Notes: generated from the sequence alone by a model not told the origin. Numbered from the stretch's first letter, positions 6,869-61,665 are shown. The stretch: DNA of 64,000 bases from Acidobacteriota bacterium (GCA_022571885.1 JACZWZ010000001.1:156-64155), one strand, 5' to 3'. A program made the numbers and translations.

Positions 6869-7546
6869 GTGTTTATGGCCGTCGCACTACTGGAGGATGT
6901 CGGCAGCTCGCGGCGTAGCGATCTTCGCCGTGAGCTGATTGTGGTAGATCCGCGCCCTCTGTTTGCTGATGCCATCTCGGCCGGCTTCGACTCCGGCGAA
7001 TGGCTGGTCCACATCCTCGCCCCGGAGGTGGTGTCCGACATCCCGATTCGAACCGGCATCGGTGTGGTGGCGCTGGCCCGACCCGACCCGGCGGAAGTGG
7101 TGGCAATCCTCGCCGCTCGAGACAGACGGGTGATCGTGTACGGAAGTGACCAAGGGGCGATGTTTTTCGAGGCCGTCGAGGCGGGTGCAGTCGGATTCGT
7201 CTCCGATCGGGCCGAGGCCGGCGAGTTCGGACGGGCGGCGACGGCACTACGCAATGGGGCCCCGTCGGTGTTCCCGGAACACACCCGGCGCCGAATGTCG
7301 AGCCCCGGGTGGCCGGCTGCCGACAGCGGCGTTGTCGAACTGGAACGCCTGACCCGACGGGAACGAGAAGTGCTCAATGGGCTGGTCGCCGGGCTGAGTC
7401 CCGCCGCAATCGCCGAACGGGATTTCGTCTCGGTGATCACCGTGCGCAACCAGGTGCAAGCCATCCTCACCAAGCTGAACGTTCACTCGCAGCTCGAGGC
7501 GGTCGCCACCGTGCACCGCTACGGCTGGATGCTTCACACCGCGTAA
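6869..7546 (+). CDS. LuxR-family transcriptional regulator with atypical N-terminal receiver-like domain
   Basis: C-terminal LTRREREVLNGLVAGLSPAAIAERDFVSVITVRNQVQAILTKLNV is a LuxR/GerE-type HTH; N-terminal part resembles a degenerate REC. Same strand as flp and directly upstream. Confidence 0.6.
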   Translation: MFMAVALLEDVGSSRRSDLRRELIVVDPRPLFADAISAGFDSGEWLVHILAPEVVSDIPIRTGIGVVALARPDPAEVVAILAARDRRVIVYGSDQGAMFFEAVEAGAVGFVSDRAEAGEFGRAATALRNGAPSVFPEHTRRRMSSPGWPAADSGVVELERLTRREREVLNGLVAGLSPAAIAERDFVSVITVRNQVQAILTKLNVHSQLEAVATVHRYGWMLHTA

Positions 7547-15456: not shown

Positions 15457-15830
15457 GGAAGTCACCAGTCTCCAGTCTCCAGTCTCCAGTCTCCAGTCAG
15501 AATTCAGATTCGGAGGGAGGCCATCCTGCTGAGTGGCTGACCAAAGAACTCCAGTCCCCACTTGAGAAGTCCCCGGTTTCCGGTCCCCAGTCGCTAGTCA
15601 GAATTCAGATTCGGAGAGAGGCCCCTCCTGATGACTGGCGGCTTAGAGGCCGCGCGGATAGGCGGGATGCGACCGCCGGTGCCTCGTGAGCCCTTGTGGA
15701 ATATCGCCCTGCGTGTGAAACATCCGTCCATGTTTCACCCAACCGCTGAGTCTCTTAGTACTGAAGTCTTGCTGGAGACTGGAGACTGACGACTGACGAC
15801 TGACGACTGACGACTGACGACTCCTCTACG
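15457..15830. repeat. heptamer tandem arrays as inverted arms ((CAGTCTC)x4 ... (GGAGACT)x2(GACGACT)x5) bounding about 270 nt with two 28-nt direct repeats (gtcagaattcagattcggagRgaggcc) and a 9-bp perfect hairpin (gtgaaacat ccgtcc atgtttcac)
   Basis: Read directly in the convergent tadC / UPF0182 intergenic region. Confidence 0.7.
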
Positions 15831-18954: not shown

Positions 18955-19040
18955 TGCCGTCGAGTATCCAGTTCAGACTGGTTACTGGCTACTGGCTACT
19001 GGTTACTGGCTACTGGCTACTGGTTACTGGTTACTCTGCC
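18955..19040. repeat. (TACTGGY)x8 heptamer tandem array, preceded by two copies of gtcgagtatccRgt
   Basis: ggttactggctactggctactggttactggctactggctactggttactggttact read directly between the DivIVA-like stop and UPF0182 start. Confidence 0.8.
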
Positions 19041-21992: not shown

Positions 21993-22859
21993 ATGAGCCG
22001 TATAAGCCGCACACTCGAACTCGCCGGATCATCCTGGCGAGTCCTCAAAGCCGACAAGGAACTGGTGCTCCTTCCTCTTCTGTCACTGATCGCAACGGTT
22101 GCCGTGGCCGTTTCGTTCCTGTGGCCGATCGTCAGCAGCTGCACCGAAACCATCGGATCAAAGAACGCCTGTGAGCTCGGTGGCGTCGACTACGTGATCC
22201 TCGCAGTCGCCTATCTCACTCTCGCCTTCATCACGATCTTCTTCAATGCAGCCCTCGTCCACGCCGCCAATGAGCGAATGGATGGCGGAGATCCCACGGT
22301 CGGCAGCGCCATCAGGGGAGCGTTGGGCAAGATCCACCGAATCCTGCCGTGGGCGATCGTCTCGGCGACGGTTTCGGTGATCCTCCGCAGCCTCGAGCAG
22401 AGGGCCGGCCTGGTGGGACGTATCGTGATCGGGTTCATCGGGTTGGCCTGGTCGCTGGTCACCTTCCTCATCGTCCCGGTGCTGGTCATCGAAGACATCG
22501 GAGTATTCGACGCCGTAAAACGCTCGGGAGCGTTGTTCAAGCGCACCTGGGGAGAGAACATGGCAGCACAGGTCGGCTTCGGACTCCTCGGAATCCTGGC
22601 TGCATTGCCGGGAATCGCAATCATCGTTCTCGGCTTCAACGCAGGCGGACCGGCCGCCGTGACCGCGATCGCCATCGGAATGGCGTGGATTCTGGCGTCA
22701 CTTTTGGTGCTATCCGCTCTCAATGGGATCTTCCAAACGGCTCTCTACCGGCATGCCACCGGTGTGGGAACCGGGGCGTTCGATGGGAATTTGACGACGG
22801 CGTTTGCGACGAAGACGCGGCGCGGATTCGGATCGACCCCCCGAGGGTTCGGAGGATAG
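21993..22859 (+). CDS. hypothetical polytopic membrane protein
   Basis: Six or more hydrophobic segments; no catalytic motif recognised. Confidence 0.5.
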   Translation: MSRISRTLELAGSSWRVLKADKELVLLPLLSLIATVAVAVSFLWPIVSSCTETIGSKNACELGGVDYVILAVAYLTLAFITIFFNAALVHAANERMDGGDPTVGSAIRGALGKIHRILPWAIVSATVSVILRSLEQRAGLVGRIVIGFIGLAWSLVTFLIVPVLVIEDIGVFDAVKRSGALFKRTWGENMAAQVGFGLLGILAALPGIAIIVLGFNAGGPAAVTAIAIGMAWILASLLVLSALNGIFQTALYRHATGVGTGAFDGNLTTAFATKTRRGFGSTPRGFGG

Positions 22860-22860
22860 G

Positions 22861-22925
22861 GGTTAGGTGTTAGGGATTAGGCGTTAGGAAGAATTTCTAA
22901 GACCTAATACCCAATACCTAACGCC
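22861..22925. repeat. TTAGG-heptamer inverted-arm palindrome (ggttaggtgttagggattaggcgttagg aagaatttct aagacctaatacccaatacctaacgcc)
   Basis: Read directly between convergent genes (membrane protein + / bioY -). Confidence 0.8.
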
Positions 22926-33934: not shown

Positions 33935-34020
33935 TTCTGACTGGAGACTGGTGACTGGTGACTGAGGACTGGCGACCGGACTCCTTCGGGAGTCGGGCAT
34001 CGGGCATCGGGGTTACGCTG
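33935..34020. repeat. heptamer tandem repeats (GACTGGT/GGAGACT-type, then GGGCATC x2)
   Basis: ctgactggagactggtgactggtgactgaggactggcgacc...gggcatcgggcatcggg read directly. Confidence 0.7.
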
Positions 34021-34505: not shown

Positions 34506-34555
34506 CCATTTAGGTATTAGGTATTAGGCGTTAGGTATTAGGTATCTGGGCTTGG
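34505..34555. repeat. (TTAGGTA)x5 tandem array followed by a dispersed 30-nt motif (acccacggctcttcg...ctcatc) at 34577-34612
   Basis: ccatttaggtattaggtattaggcgttaggtattaggtatctggg read directly. Confidence 0.8.
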
Positions 34556-38915: not shown

Positions 38916-39108
38916 CCGGCGCCGAGCCCTACGAAACCCTCCGCGCAGCAGCAATCTGACGCTCCTTACGCACCCGGCGCTGCACCCACGGCTCTTCGGC
39001 TAACACCTCATCACAATGTCGGCCGGGTCCCTACCCAGCCGACCGGCGCCGAGCCCTACGAAACCTTCCGCGCAGCAGCAATCTGACGCTCCTTACGCAC
39101 CCGGCGCC
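38916..39108. repeat. 65-nt direct duplication of the whiB 3' terminus (38916-38980 and 39043-39108, 1 mismatch), 62 nt apart
   Basis: ccggcgccgagccctacgaaaccYtccgcgcagcagcaatctgacgctccttacgcacccggcgc occurs twice; the upstream copy overlaps the real whiB C-terminus and stop. The spacer contains the dispersed motif acccacggctcttcggctaacacctcatcac also seen at 34577. Confidence 0.75.
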
Positions 39109-39337: not shown

Positions 39338-39375
39338 TGCAGTTCCTTACACAGCTGTAATTACGGCAGTGACAT

Positions 39376-39600
39376 TATGCGCGCGGAGCGCGCGTGCGTC
39401 AAATGCTTTTCGCATAACAGCTCACTACCGCGCGCGGCCTTATGAGTGGCAGGAGGGAACCTTGACAGTGCGCGCGGAGCGCGCGCACTGTTAGTCCTTA
39501 GCCTTTAGTCGTTAGTCCTTAGGAAAGAAAAGACGAAGACAGGAGACAGCCGACAGCCCCGCCTCTGACCTAATGACTAAGGACTAATGACTAACGCCTC
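39376..39600. promoter_or_regulatory. whiB upstream region with GC-rich palindromes (gcgcgcg gag cgcgcg at 39379; perfect cagtgcgcgcg gag cgcgcgcactg at 39466-39490) and TTAGTCC inverted-arm repeats (39491-39600)
   Basis: Read directly; between the whiB start and sdhB stop. Confidence 0.45.
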
Positions 39601-43286: not shown

Positions 43287-44165
43287 ATGCGTTCCCTCCC
43301 CCCTGTCATGCCGGCTCTGATCACTCCGTTCACCCGTACCGGTGAACTCGACCTCGAGGCACACCGCCACAACGTCGCACGAATGTGGGATCTCGGGTTG
43401 CGAGGACACCTCATCGCAGGCAGCACCGGGGAAGGCCCCTACCTCGAATCCGGAGAGCGGCGCATCCTCATCGCCGCGGCTCGCGAGGTCTCTCCGCGGT
43501 CCTTCCTCCTGTGCGGGATTCACGCTGAAACGGTTCGCTCTGCGATCGCGGCGATGCACGAGGCCGGTGAAGGCGGCGCCGATGCGGCCCTTGTGGTGAC
43601 CCCGACGACGCTCGTTCGCCACCGGCCCGACCTGATCGAGGCATTCTTCGTCGAGGTCACCGAGGCGGCACAGTTGCCGGTGCTCCTCTACTCGGTGCCG
43701 AAGGTGACTGGTGTCGAACTCGCCGAGTCGAGCGTCGCCTCACTCTCGTCGCATCCACGCATCGTGGGGATGAAGGATTCGGGAGGTGATCCGATCCGTT
43801 CATCCCGCCTGGTGAGAGCAATACCAGACCGTTTCAAATTGTACGTAGGTGCCACCCCCGCCATCAGTCTGTCGATCGCCGGCGGAGCTCACGGCGCCAT
43901 AACCGCCAGCACCAACTACGCCCCGCGGCTGGTTGGCGACACAGTGATCGCAGCGCGTCGATCGTTGCGCGCGGCCGAAACTCTCCAATCCAGGCTTTCG
44001 GTACTGTCGATCGCAATCGAGGGTCACGGCATCCCGGGCGTCAAGTACGCCGCCGGTCGTGCCGGCTTGGCGGCGGGCCACAGCCGCGCTCCCCTCGACT
44101 CACCTTCGCCTGAAGTGAAGCGCTTCGTCCGTCGTGTCATGGCGACGGCGGAGTTGGGGGATTAG
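43287..44165 (+). CDS. dihydrodipicolinate synthase/N-acetylneuraminate lyase family protein (DapA-like)
   Basis: LITPFTRTGELDLEAHRHNV...GSTGEGPYLESGER...GMKDSGGD (Schiff-base Lys region). Start at 43287 or 43308 preferred over 43206. Confidence 0.65.
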   Translation: MRSLPPVMPALITPFTRTGELDLEAHRHNVARMWDLGLRGHLIAGSTGEGPYLESGERRILIAAAREVSPRSFLLCGIHAETVRSAIAAMHEAGEGGADAALVVTPTTLVRHRPDLIEAFFVEVTEAAQLPVLLYSVPKVTGVELAESSVASLSSHPRIVGMKDSGGDPIRSSRLVRAIPDRFKLYVGATPAISLSIAGGAHGAITASTNYAPRLVGDTVIAARRSLRAAETLQSRLSVLSIAIEGHGIPGVKYAAGRAGLAAGHSRAPLDSPSPEVKRFVRRVMATAELGD

Positions 44166-44650
44166 GGATTAGCAATACGCCAGTGCGTAGGCAGGTCCCG
44201 GAGTCGGAGGACCCCCCTCCAACGACCTACGGTCGTTGACTCCCCCTCAAGGGTGTCGGGTTGCGCGATAGGGCCGACGGTTCTGTTCTGAATACTCTCC
44301 CCTTTGGGGGGAGTCAGCGAGCGAAGCGAGCTGGTGGGGGGTACCTGGTCTTCGTCTCCGTCAGGCCAACACGTCTTGTATGTCGTAGTGGCCTTTCACC
44401 GGGTGGTTGCGCCAGGTTGGGTAGCCACTCGATCATGCGTCTTGTGGGTCAGTTCGCCGAGTCGGTGTGTGGTCAGATAGGCAGCGGGATTGCCGCGACT
44501 TGGTGAGTCCCCCCACCAATCGGCCTGCGGCCGATTGACTCCCCCCAGAGGGGAGAGTGATCCAACCAACCGTCGGGCACTAACCGCGACAGATCACCCT
44601 CAAGGGGGGAGTGGTTCCCTATTGCTAATCGCTAATTGCTAATTGCGGGA
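44155..44650. mobile_element. copy A of a repeated structured element of about 500 bp (MITE-like): outer GATTAG/GCAAT arms, 14-bp TIR-like ends (ccccctcaagggtg ... caccctcaaggggg, core 44242-44608), internal GC hairpins
   Basis: Aligns by eye at roughly 90-95% identity with 56745-57290; no conserved ORF between the copies. Confidence 0.7.
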
Positions 44651-44695
44651 GGCGGCGCAGCCGCCGACCTCTTGCGAACAAAGAGGTAGTCTCGG

Positions 44696-47659: not shown

Positions 47660-47725
47660 GCACCCAGTACCCAGTACCTCGGAGGCTCCTTCTACTGGTT
47701 ACTGGCTACTGGCTACTGGCTACCC
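47660..47725. repeat. (CCAGTAC)x2 ... (TACTGGY)x5 heptamer array, same family as 18955-19040
   Basis: cagtacccagtacc...ctactggttactggctactggctactggctaccc read directly between the mdh start and icd stop. Confidence 0.8.
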
Positions 47726-52204: not shown

Positions 52205-52310
52205 AGGGGTCAAGAGATCGTTTCCCGTTCCCAGTTCCCCGTTTCCCGAATCTCGGCGCGACCTGATTCGGGAAACGGGACACGGGAAGCGGGAAACGAT
52301 CAGTTGGCCG
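52205..52310. repeat. GTTTCCC/GGGAAAC heptamer inverted-arm palindrome with spacer
   Basis: tttcccgttcccagttccccgtttcccgaatctcggcgcgacctgattcgggaaacgggacacgggaagcgggaaac read directly; related GGGAAAC repeats at 43228-43260. Confidence 0.75.
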
Positions 52311-54589: not shown

Positions 54590-54665
54590 GGGAGTTAGGG
54601 CTAGGAGTTAGGAACCAGGAAGAGACCGTCTACCTAATACCTAATGCCTAATACCTAACTCCTAC
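54590..54665. repeat. TTAGG inverted-arm palindrome (gggagttagggctaggagttagg ... cctaatacctaatgcctaatacctaactcc)
   Basis: Read directly between the pcrA start and the cheA-like stop. Confidence 0.8.
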
Positions 54666-56744: not shown

Positions 56745-57290
56745 GTTAGCGATAAGTGGTAGCAATACGCAATGCGCCCAGCAGGCCACTTGCAGGCAAC
56801 GACCGCGTTGGAGTTCTCGGAGTCGGAGGGGCCCCTCCAATCGAGCTCCGCTCGATTGACTCCCCCTCGAGGGTGTCGGGTTGCGCGATAGGGCCGACGG
56901 TTCTGTTCTGAACACTCTCCCCTTTGGGGGGAGTCAGCGAGCGAAGCGAGCTGGTGGGGGGTACCCGGTCTTCGTCTCCGTCAGGCCAACACGTCGTGTA
57001 TGTCGTAATGGCCTTTCACCGGGTGGTCGCGCCAGGTTTGTGTAGCCACTCGAACATCCGTCTTGTGGGTCAGCTCGCCGAGCCGGTGTGCGTCCAATAG
57101 GCAGCGGGATTGCCGCGACTTGGTGAGTCCCCCCACCAATCGGCCTGCGGCCGATTGACTCCCCCCAGAGGGGAGAGTGATCCAACCAACCGTCGGGCAC
57201 CAACCGCGACAGATCACCCTCGAGGGGGGAGTGGTTCCTTATTGCTACTCGCTAATCGCCAATCGCGGAAGGCGCCGACGCATCTCTGAC
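56745..57290. mobile_element. copy B of the repeated structured element of about 500 bp (perfect 14-bp TIRs ccccctcgagggtg 56862-56875 / caccctcgaggggg 57215-57228), followed by (GGACTAA)x4 heptamers
   Basis: Same order of blocks as copy A; stem-loops differ by compensatory changes (A: aacgacc tac ggtcgtt; B: aatcgagc tcc gctcgatt). Confidence 0.7.
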
Positions 57291-57336
57291 CTGAGGACTA
57301 AGGACTAACGACTAAGGACTAACAACTGGCGAAGCC

Positions 57337-61549: not shown

Positions 61550-61665
61550 GTTAGTCACCAATCAACCAGTCACCAGTCAGACAGCAGATAGCAGACAACA
61601 GACAAGAGACAACAGACAGGTTCTCCAATCTGCAATCTGCAATCTGCACCCAGCACCCAGCACGC
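61550..61665. repeat. mixed heptamer tandem arrays ((CCAGTCA)x2, (CAGACAA)-like x5, (CAATCTG)x3, (CCCAGCA)x2)
   Basis: gtcaccagtcaccagtcagacagcagatagcagacaacagacaagagacaacagacagg...caatctgcaatctgcaatctgcacccagcacccagcac read directly. Confidence 0.8.

Follow-up and report, generated by a model that had tools for sequence, protein, structure and literature searches.

A two-hairpin repeat family that brackets DUF559 nuclease genes, and its two composite copies in a 64-kb bacterial window

The DNA considered here is a stretch of 64,000 nt assigned to an Acidobacteriota bacterium (GCA_022571885.1, JACZWZ010000001.1:156-64155), referred to as the window, together with two intergenic, non-coding elements inside it: copy A at about 44170-44660 and copy B at about 56760-57280. 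Each is a composite, a nested palindrome assembled from a two-hairpin unit of about 52 nt. Judged from sequence, both are probably non-autonomous, gene-deleted derivatives of a cassette in which a DUF559 nuclease gene stands between unit doublets, with the nuclease as the presumed mobilising enzyme. By the same kind of evidence, the unit family is similar to repetitive extragenic palindromic (REP) sequences and bacterial interspersed mosaic elements (BIMEs), and it is intergenic in one lineage of uncultured marine Acidimicrobiia. Since units consistently flank the DUF559 gene, its product can be tested as the candidate enzyme behind their spread. The repeats are an undescribed member of a familiar class; a DUF559 protein in place of a tyrosine transposase is the unusual part.

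The unit runs, on one strand, from a C-tract through a variable perfect palindrome to a GACTCCCCCC/GGGGAGAG hairpin. Its consensus reads CCCCCCACC, followed by a 6-8-bp palindrome with a 3-nt loop and then by TGACTCCCCCC-NNN-GGGGAGAGTG. A covariance model built from 32 units, R1, finds exactly six units in the window, three in each copy and none elsewhere, and 202 units in 497 kb of related loci (L numbers below) that were chosen for carrying units.

A search of Pfam with about 95 unit-adjacent open reading frames (ORFs) of at most 340 aa returned a single nuclease or mobile-element match, DUF559 in L050 (E = 1.4e-32). The ORFs were joined by GS linkers and scanned as pseudo-proteins, and the spurious 'Serglycin' matches that resulted were disregarded. 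The L050 protein has 122 aa, belongs to the Vsr-like PD-(D/E)XK nucleases and scores 112 bits with PF04480, against a cut-off of 20.6; unit doublets lie on both sides of its gene. Close homologues (66-81% identity), reached by exact-protein look-up, share this arrangement. Units abut the gene in all of the contigs fetched (L084-L089; 34 R1 matches in 15 kb) and occupy both sides except in L084, where they adjoin the gene's 3' end only, while the neighbouring genes differ. In L091, an unbiased locus of 12.3 kb with five units, four stand beside the DUF559 gene in two doublets sharing 97-98% identity, so that the gene sits between near-identical repeats. A unit forms the 3' end of the intact gene. 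About eleven other intergenic regions of that locus hold one unit in total. No methyltransferase gene lies next to the six DUF559 cassettes, and a DNA methylase ORF in L043 is unlinked to cassettes.

More distant homologues (50-57% identity), from Chitinibacter, Reyranella and two other large genomes, have their own lineage-specific repeats on both sides. Each of these repeats forms a CTCCCC...GGGGAG-type hairpin, and three of the four loci carry further copies away from the gene. In E. coli K-12 (L095, NC_000913.3 1351039-1351830), a CCCTCTCCC...GAGGGGG hairpin and the 3' end of the DUF559 gene ycjD overlap, and the 368-nt spacer toward fabI holds a duplicate of a 3' piece of ycjD as well as a full repeat. 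This repeat, which we take to be BoxC, occurs at a median of 17 places per genome. Altogether, hairpin repeats flank the DUF559 gene in all 11 loci examined, in the case of ycjD on the 3' side.

In the DUF559 proteins, residues D53, E64, D66, Q69 and H70, which form a VDF...ExDG.QH motif, are invariant in 10 proteins including YcjD; the homologues carry PF04480 and PF18741; and the nearest solved structure is that of a Neisseria endonuclease-like protein (PDB 3HRL, E = 1.7e-22). From these residues, the nuclease is probably catalytically active. No literature linking DUF559 or ycjD to REP-like repeats or BoxC was found in a search of incomplete coverage, and the newness of the association is thus unproven.

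The second line of evidence lies within the copies themselves. Copy A is laid out as unit 1 (+), a spacer, unit 2 (-), a 167-nt centre, unit 3 (+), a spacer and the 3' half of a fourth hairpin (-). The parts of both copies are as follows, with strand given where one is assigned.

Copy A, 44158-44179: left outer arm, GGGATTA twice and then TAGCAATACG (Tandem Repeats Finder)
Copy A, 44161-44177 with 44620-44636: inverted repeat I3, 94% complementary
Copy A, 44212-44263, plus strand: unit 1 (R1 55.7 bits, E = 3e-11)
Copy A, 44256-44289: spacer b-c between units 1 and 2, an imperfect complement of 44563-44594 (inverted repeat, I1 in copy B; consensus fold)
Copy A, 44290-44341, minus strand: unit 2, b-type (R1 61.3 bits), 98-100% conserved among copies
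Copy A, 44342-44439: left-hand stretch of the centre, without coding content, conserved at about 88% between copies and partly missing in a deletion variant
Copy A, 44440-44508, plus strand: right-hand stretch of the centre, the degenerate 3' tail of a DUF559 gene, reading ...DRQRDCRDLVS in frame with unit 3
Copy A, 44509-44562, plus strand: unit 3, a-type (R1 70.6 bits, E = 1e-14)
Copy A, 44563-44612: spacer c'-b' and right end, with the right 14-mer at 44595-44608
Copy A, 44620-44660: right outer arm, ATTGCTA 3.7 times (Tandem Repeats Finder), where the similarity of A and B stops
Copy B, 56760-56829: left outer part, TAGCAATACG and a stretch about 29 nt longer than that of A (alignment), with inverted repeats I4 and I7
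Copy B, 56830-56883, plus strand: unit 1 (R1 33 bits, E = 6e-6), with the variable palindrome at 56839-56857 and the left 14-mer at 56862-56875
Copy B, 56910-56961, minus strand: unit 2, b-type (R1 63.9 bits)
Copy B, 56962-57060: left part of the centre (alignment with A)
Copy B, 57061-57128, plus strand: DUF559 gene 3' remnant; ORF 57063-57158 reads ...NRQRDCRDLVSPPTNRPAAD
Copy B, 57129-57182, plus strand: unit 3, a-type (R1 70.6 bits)
Copy B, 57183-57232: spacer c'-b' and right end, with the right 14-mer at 57215-57228
Copy B, 57244-57280: right outer heptamer array, GCTAATC 3.3 times (Tandem Repeats Finder), where the similarity of A and B stops
Outside copy B's right arm, 57294-57327: a distinct AGGACTA array (Tandem Repeats Finder)

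In copy A, the second hairpin of unit 1 is split, as GACTCCCCC-TCAA-GGGTG; this unit holds the variable palindrome 44221-44237 and the left 14-mer 44242-44255. Unit 2 has the constant AGCGAGCGAAGCGAGCT hairpin with GCGAAGC inside. The right end consists of a unit hairpin's 3' half, CACCC-TCAA-GGGGGGAGT.

A match to the DUF559 gene of L085 takes in the centre's right 66 nt and unit 3 and, in the gene, its 3' end (L085 1721-1840; 83.5% over 121 nt, E = 4e-27 by blastn). The centre part alone also aligns locally with L085 (z = 17, reached by 0 of 500 shuffles), and ORF 44467-44538, MWSDRQRDCRDLVSPPTNRPAAD, matches the L085 C-terminus LDRQRDCRDLVSPPTNRPVAD. In intact genes, an a-type unit encodes the C-terminal PPTNRPxAD and the stop codon (CCCCCCACCAATCGGCC...GATTGA), the stop being provided by the TGACTCC of what is unit 3 in the composite. 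Both copies still read ...DRQRDCRDLVSPPTNRPAAD and a stop across the junction of gene and unit 3, which is joined as in the intact gene. This remnant accompanies the composite at 20 or more sites, and gene-less derivatives outnumber the DUF559 gene. Given the retained gene tail and the doublets, the composite shows the cassette layout of doublet, gene and doublet with most of the gene missing. A profile of five cassettes searched against the composite cores with nhmmer gave weak 3'-end matches only (E = 0.004-0.5), so that the pairwise alignment with L085 carries the information.

Coding content beyond the remnant found little footing. The sequence-only reading of the window had held that no ORF is conserved between the copies. 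It was right that no long one occurs in both, because indels shift the reading frame, and indel lengths among composite copies are not multiples of three; it missed the 3' end of a DUF559 gene hidden there. The centre was also considered as protein-coding, but the 81-aa ORF of copy A matched a single 87-aa cluster and no longer protein, leaving the 3' remnant as the only coding-derived part.

The extent and likeness of the copies agree with that reading's description of two intergenic copies of about 500 bp at 90-95% identity. Blastn gives 92.4% across 473 nt (A 44185-44654, B 56805-57274), MAFFT concurs, and gap-free blocks of 183-186 nt are 94-97% identical. The similarity opens at TAGCAATACG (A 44170, B 56760) and closes near A 44660 and B 57280. 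Coordinates bear out cores of equal length between the 14-mers (A 44242-44608, B 56862-57228; 367 bp each). The outer GCAAT/ATTAG arms are likewise real (17 nt, 94% complementary) and form part of period-7 tandem arrays (Tandem Repeats Finder). GACTCCCCC occurs 6 times in the window, all within the two copies, where 1.3 occurrences are expected, and as single-stranded DNA copy A folds with z = -9.5, a value that none of 100 shuffles equals.

The 14-bp inverted ends fare less well. They are perfect in copy B, where the TCGA loop is palindromic, but only 12 of 14 positions are complementary in copy A. A proposed concerted change at both ends of copy A dissolves on inspection: both ends read TCAAGGG on one strand, a direct repeat in which pairing is not kept. 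In copy B, the self-complementarity of TCGA hides the distinction between direct and inverted. Across composite copies, pairwise conservation is 98-100% for the inner units, 88% for the centre and lowest, at 61-65%, for the 14-mer ends. Because the ends are the least conserved segment and are halves of another unit's hairpin, they are probably not terminal inverted repeats (TIRs) of the transposase type. The idea of a mobile element resembling a miniature inverted-repeat transposable element (MITE) is otherwise supported to the extent that the element is of the MITE/REP type: multi-copy, non-coding, hairpin-rich, dispersed, and present or absent at given sites. A related observation comes from L091 11807-11880, which has an intact GACTCCCCC-TCGA-GGGGGGAGT hairpin followed by GGTTCCCTTGCC...CTAATTGCTAA, with a right-hand context as in A and B; it may be the uninterrupted form of the composite's split outer hairpin.

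The variable stem of the unit covaries. Six of its seven pairs have changes on both sides (126 cells, 117 distinct units), 94% of cells are paired, and 0 of 500 shuffles reach the observed values. Sliding the partners by 1-3 columns lowers the pairing to 33-54%, and an ungapped set of 32 sequences gives the same covariation outcome. G-U pairs account for 2 of some 800 cells. This pattern points to pairing that acts at the level of a DNA palindrome and not of RNA, since an RNA family would show many wobble intermediates, whereas selection or correction of a DNA palindrome would not. Moreover, 78 of 100 perfect stems have TNC loops, which are GNA on the opposite strand, and the constant b-type unit includes GCGAAGC. 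GNA triloops and d(GCGAAGC) form unusually stable DNA mini-hairpins.

The stem-loops in which A and B differ (A 44221-44237, aacgacc-tac-ggtcgtt; B 56839-56857, aatcgagc-tcc-gctcgatt) had been taken for compensatory change. Pairing is indeed perfect in both, but the difference fits better a swap between alleles of a family-wide variable module than stepwise compensation between two copies. B's stem, AATCGAGC/GCTCGATT, is found again in other units of three metagenome-assembled genomes (MAGs), and the stems of A and B are unequal in length while the remainder of the two copies is 92-100% identical; this recurrence and this inequality favour the swap.

Relatives show a dispersed family. A 23-nt unit pattern occurs, among the matches listed, in more than 76 loci of three Acidimicrobiia MAGs and one MAG labelled Kiloniellaceae; in viral contigs it has 0 matches. 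The composite core has at least 13 near-full copies at 86-93% identity in related MAGs, as well as deletion variants that recur, a CGTCTTGT direct repeat marking the limits of one, and the composite is also present on 5 metagenome contigs. The search for copies in relatives thus finds the composite widespread and excludes a private segmental duplication. One Acidimicrobiia MAG is syntenic with the window at 86%, and by synteny with the window the four unit-bearing MAGs form one lineage. The 'uncultured Kiloniellaceae' MAG CAXMOL01 (loci L002-L075) is syntenic with window 20562-63698 at 73-81% nucleotide identity; its label, that of an alphaproteobacterial family, looks wrong and is doubtful.

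Occupancy of orthologous sites varies. L067, L081 and L064 are filled with the composite where the window's orthologous sites have heptamer arrays only; L034 has a filled and L063 an empty site for copy A; for copy B, the site in L067 is empty; and one orthologous site has a solo unit in L015 and a composite in L079. Copy number in relatives and presence or absence at orthologous sites together show the family as such. In L005 2180-2700 and L080 2875-3384, the flanks are 99% identical and the composite arms nearly identical, while the centres share about 65%, which indicates that a centre was replaced by exchange with another family member. Orthologous empty sites are too diverged to define insertion junctions.

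Units are arranged in the manner of known palindromic repeats. Short palindromic repeats are over-represented outside genes, and only 8 of 195 units fall inside crudely called genes, probably as 5' over-calls. By a crude gene caller based on G+C content at third codon positions, which supplies all orientation and context figures here, units lie between convergent, tandem and divergent genes 47, 58 and 12 times, compared with 59, 125 and 50 background intergenic regions. Their orientation relative to genes is without bias, with 25 units in the same direction and 33 in the opposite one. Among neighbouring units, 68 of 94 pairs are inverted, and 42 singlets stand beside 59 clusters of 2-6 units. 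The alternation of a-type (+) and b-type (-) units, with spacers 85-94% conserved, recurs in the composite and in the arrays of OFTM344 and L085. An insertion of about 85 nt was also seen at an identical point within the b-type GCGAAGC hairpin in two composites (L046, about 470-555; L039, about 7004-7138) and one DUF559 cassette (L087, about 1311-1396). It carries its own GCCGCC...GGCGGC hairpin and a GGACTCGAAC motif and looks like a second, nested small element.

How such copies might spread can be sketched. A low-copy intact gene would supply the nuclease in trans, and the enzyme would recognise and nick the unit hairpin or cruciform. Host repair or recombination would then copy units, doublets and composites to new intergenic sites or convert them between sites. 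Spread would be a homing-like copying and not cut-and-paste. Copying induced by nicks is proposed because it would account for the module and centre swaps, the poor ends, the similarity of A and B running into the heptamers, and the inconsistent target duplication. Stem palindromy would be maintained either through a failure of unfoldable copies to propagate or by template switching in quasi-palindromes, the latter being a known mechanism.

Several observations weigh against derivation from a DUF559 cassette and spread by its nuclease. The 64-kb window contains no DUF559 gene. The left 100 nt of the centre show no likeness to the leader or 5' coding part of DUF559 cassettes (z = -0.2 for the consensus, 1.9 for copy A), and a likeness hinted at by MAFFT was dropped as not significant. 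The similarity of A and B runs past the 14-bp ends into the heptamer arrays, which fits recombinational copying but leaves no clean transposition footprint. A 10-bp direct repeat (CCCTCAAGGG or CCCTCGAGGG) lies at the ends of A, B, L064, L069 and L038, and the ends of L074, L013, L012, L046 and L005 lack it. The unit counts come from loci selected for their units. DUF559 proteins have been described or proposed as T:G mismatch nucleases, and the relatives with a characterised activity are either of that kind (Vsr) or homing nucleases of introns (PMC3424549, PMC12907096). The E. coli repeats adjoin ycjD on one side only; the repeat is present in all 5426 complete genomes and the ycjD 3' end in 3378, so that in many genomes the repeats persist without the gene.

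Four alternatives to a DUF559-driven origin were ranked: host-maintained repeats, an undetected REP-associated tyrosine transposase (RAYT), a DDE-type MITE and a non-coding RNA family. The E. coli distribution speaks for the highest of these, itself unlikely, in which the units would be hairpins that the host maintains for 3'-end formation, mRNA protection or nucleoid or topoisomerase binding, and that spread slowly by recombination or slippage beside an incidental DUF559 neighbour. Enrichment downstream of genes, depletion between divergent genes, the constancy of the inner units while the centre drifts, and tandem unit arrays suggestive of slippage agree with it. It leaves unexplained, however, why lineage-specific repeats bracket DUF559 in every phylum examined, why a unit supplies the C-terminus and stop codon of the gene, and why a gene remnant moves with the composite to so many sites. 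Nor is there a terminator-type T-run or a promoter: no consensus of either kind was found around the two copies. A little less probable is that the units are REPs and the doublets REP doublets forming hairpins (REPINs), moved as single-stranded DNA hairpins by a single-copy HUH tyrosine transposase (RAYT or IS200-like) encoded elsewhere, with DUF559 again incidental. Hairpin formation, intergenic placement, inverted doublets and clusters, and vertical sharing among relatives are all REPIN behaviours (PMC3116915, PMC5581495), perfect palindromes with GNA triloops are of DNA type, and the search behind this comparison covered about 0.5 Mb of several MAGs, so that the gene could have been missed. 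Within that scope, which is less than whole genomes, the roughly 95 unit-adjacent ORFs include no Y1_Tnp (PF01797-type) domain, and 541 kb of loci gave no RAYT or IS200 match by HUH...Y expressions or by tblastn with an approximate E. coli RayT query, the one weak match being folP. The flanked gene is instead DUF559 in 11 of 11 loci, although REPINs 'almost always' flank a RAYT gene (PMC5581495); the GTAG tag is absent from the units, and a hypervariable stem would be unusual for sequence-specific RAYT recognition.

The remaining two alternatives are weaker. That the 367-bp core is an internally deleted insertion sequence, moved by a DDE transposase through TIRs of 14-45 bp with CCCTCAAGGG as a 10-bp target-site duplication, is improbable. 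The cores are equal in length and their ends inverted (in copy B extendable to an inverted repeat of 41 nt at 71% complementarity), and the five copies with the 10-bp repeat share the loop directly, as expected of a target-site duplication inside a GACTCCCCC-TCAA-GGGGGGAGT hairpin; such hairpins are present intact at L060 2586, L022 494 and L091 11839. These points are offset by ends that are the least conserved segment and that in the five other copies named above are not direct repeats, by similarity of A and B continuing beyond 'TIRs' that are themselves parts of a dispersed unit, and by the lack of a multi-copy transposase ORF in the loci, where ORF clustering recovered only ABC-transporter paralogues and syntenic orthologues, no insertion sequence, and where ORFs between distant unit pairs are ordinary genes. 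Least probable of the four is a structured RNA family, in which the unit or composite would be transcribed and possibly related to Whalefall-1, an RNA graded likely by its authors (PMC2864571). The strong covariation of the variable stem would suit it, and the minus strand of unit 3 (window 44507-44560) matches Whalefall-1 (RF01762) over its full length in the same layout. That match scores 17.0 bits against a gathering score of 37; a second, at L032 3313-3362 (-), scores 14.5 bits and is one of eight L032 units, and a 61-kb search has none. An RNA family, one of the two classes suggested at the outset, is further disfavoured by the near-absence of G-U pairs, by units in both orientations relative to genes and within palindromic composites, by the missing promoter and terminator consensus, and by hundreds of copies with presence/absence polymorphism. 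Rfam gives no match to the elements at gathering score: in gathering mode the window yields one tRNA only, and in E-value mode the elements and unit-rich loci yield only sub-threshold miRNA-hairpin and Whalefall-1 matches.

The genes around the copies are ordinary. Copy A lies between an upstream DHDPS-family gene and a downstream SCP2 gene, and copy B between guaA and a downstream CheA-like gene, each pair on the same strand. Two contigs from other assemblies that encode an identical GuaA (L082 and L083) stop at or within 145 nt of the guaA stop codon, exactly where copy B begins in the window; a multi-copy repeat would be expected to break assemblies in this way.

Almost every intergenic region of the window has period-7 tandem arrays of 3-8 heptamer copies (AGTCTCC, ACTGGCT, GACTGAC, CGGGAAA and others). 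They are frequently inverted pairs around a short centre, are rich in stop codons, occur in related loci as well, and resemble the short tandemly repeated repetitive (STRR) heptamers of cyanobacteria. Examples in the window are listed here.

15460-15498, 15772-15822, 18977-19035, 22845-22921, 33939-33980 and 34510-34545: heptamer arrays
39491-39594, 47662-47723, 52219-52298, 54631-54664, 57294-57327 and 61553-61663: further heptamer arrays

One intergenic region contains the GC-rich palindrome TGCGCGCGGAGCGCGCGCA twice (about 39375-39400 and 39478-39500). The palindrome is kept in the orthologous region of L064 and may be an operator. A 65-nt direct repeat of 98% identity lies nearby (38916-38980 and 39043-39107).

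Dispersed palindromic repeats such as REP, BIME and BoxC are common in bacteria. To our knowledge, a mobilising enzyme is known only for RAYT-linked families, and we know of no mobilising partner for BoxC. GTAG and CGTC tags mark REPs, the CGTC-tagged ones being without a known partner (PMC3733652); neither tag stands beside the stem in the unit consensus. The present family shares with REPIN/RAYT systems short palindromic intergenic units, mainly in inverted doublets that fold into long hairpins and number tens to hundreds of copies (PMC3116915, PMC5581495), as well as vertical persistence in a lineage and one low-copy protein gene bracketed by repeats. It differs in that the bracketed gene encodes a PD-(D/E)XK nuclease of the DUF559 type and not an HUH tyrosine transposase, in having two-hairpin units with one hypervariable stem and without a GTAG tag, and in its actinobacterial host, where REPIN/RAYT systems belong to Proteobacteria, with no RAYT found in the 541 kb.

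Enterobacterial BIMEs are mosaics of two REP types in alternating orientation with short conserved linkers, and are bound by integration host factor, gyrase and Pol I. The a+ b- ... a+ b- alternation and the conserved spacers b/c and c'/b' described here are much alike, although the sequences are unrelated and the composite encloses a 165-nt centre with a gene remnant; BIMEs as such are described in PMC2817692. The likeness to BoxC is architectural only: its CCCTCTCCC...GGGAGAGGG hairpin and GGGTGAGGGG tail parallel the unit's G-strand CTCTCCCC-TTT-GGGGGGAG ... GGTGGGGGG, it is dispersed between genes, and one copy overlaps the ycjD 3' end while a ycjD 3' fragment lies beside another. It lacks a variable second hairpin and stands on the 3' side of ycjD only.

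With MITEs, the composite has in common a size of about 370-500 bp, a non-coding and multi-copy nature, inverted ends and a place beside a coding parent from which an internal deletion could derive it. A coding relative does exist, since the DUF559 cassette shares units, junction and 3' gene sequence. Here the parent encodes a nuclease where a MITE would have a recognised transposase as its source, conservation is lowest at the ends, and the building blocks also occur singly, in doublets and in tandem arrays. Vsr-like (EDxHD) homing endonucleases such as I-Bth0305I, listed together with DUF559 (PMC3424549), offer a parallel in a selfish gene for a small nuclease, alike in fold class, which is copied into its cognate sites after a break or nick. 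Those genes reside in group I introns or inteins of phage genes, whereas the present ones stand free between repeats, and many repeat copies lack the gene. In Whalefall-1 (RF01762; PMC2864571), as on one strand of the unit, a short linker joins a CUCC/GGAG hairpin to a hairpin with a variable stem, and a G-rich GGUG(A/G)GG tail follows, but the scores are far under threshold and the evidence here favours pairing in DNA. Repeats of this broad class may include Whalefall-1.

These results have practical as well as biological implications. The units break metagenome assemblies of the lineage, as in the contigs that end at copy B, and produce spurious ORF calls, and the family illustrates how covariation in perfect palindromes can mimic that of RNA. 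Beyond the window, we put forward tentatively that a clade of YcjD-like, Vsr-fold DUF559 endonucleases might be the cognate enzyme of widespread two-hairpin REP-like repeats with a CTCCCC/GGGGAG hairpin and a G/C-tract, the BoxC type included, independently of RAYT and from Actinobacteria to Proteobacteria. On this reading, the nuclease gene would be bracketed by its own repeats, gene-less derivatives would multiply, and the element in the window would be one such derivative. If functional, the association would constitute a second, mechanistically different partnership of repeat and enzyme and would provide a very large 'domain of unknown function' family with a function, and E. coli, with its ycjD and BoxC, would allow an immediate test.

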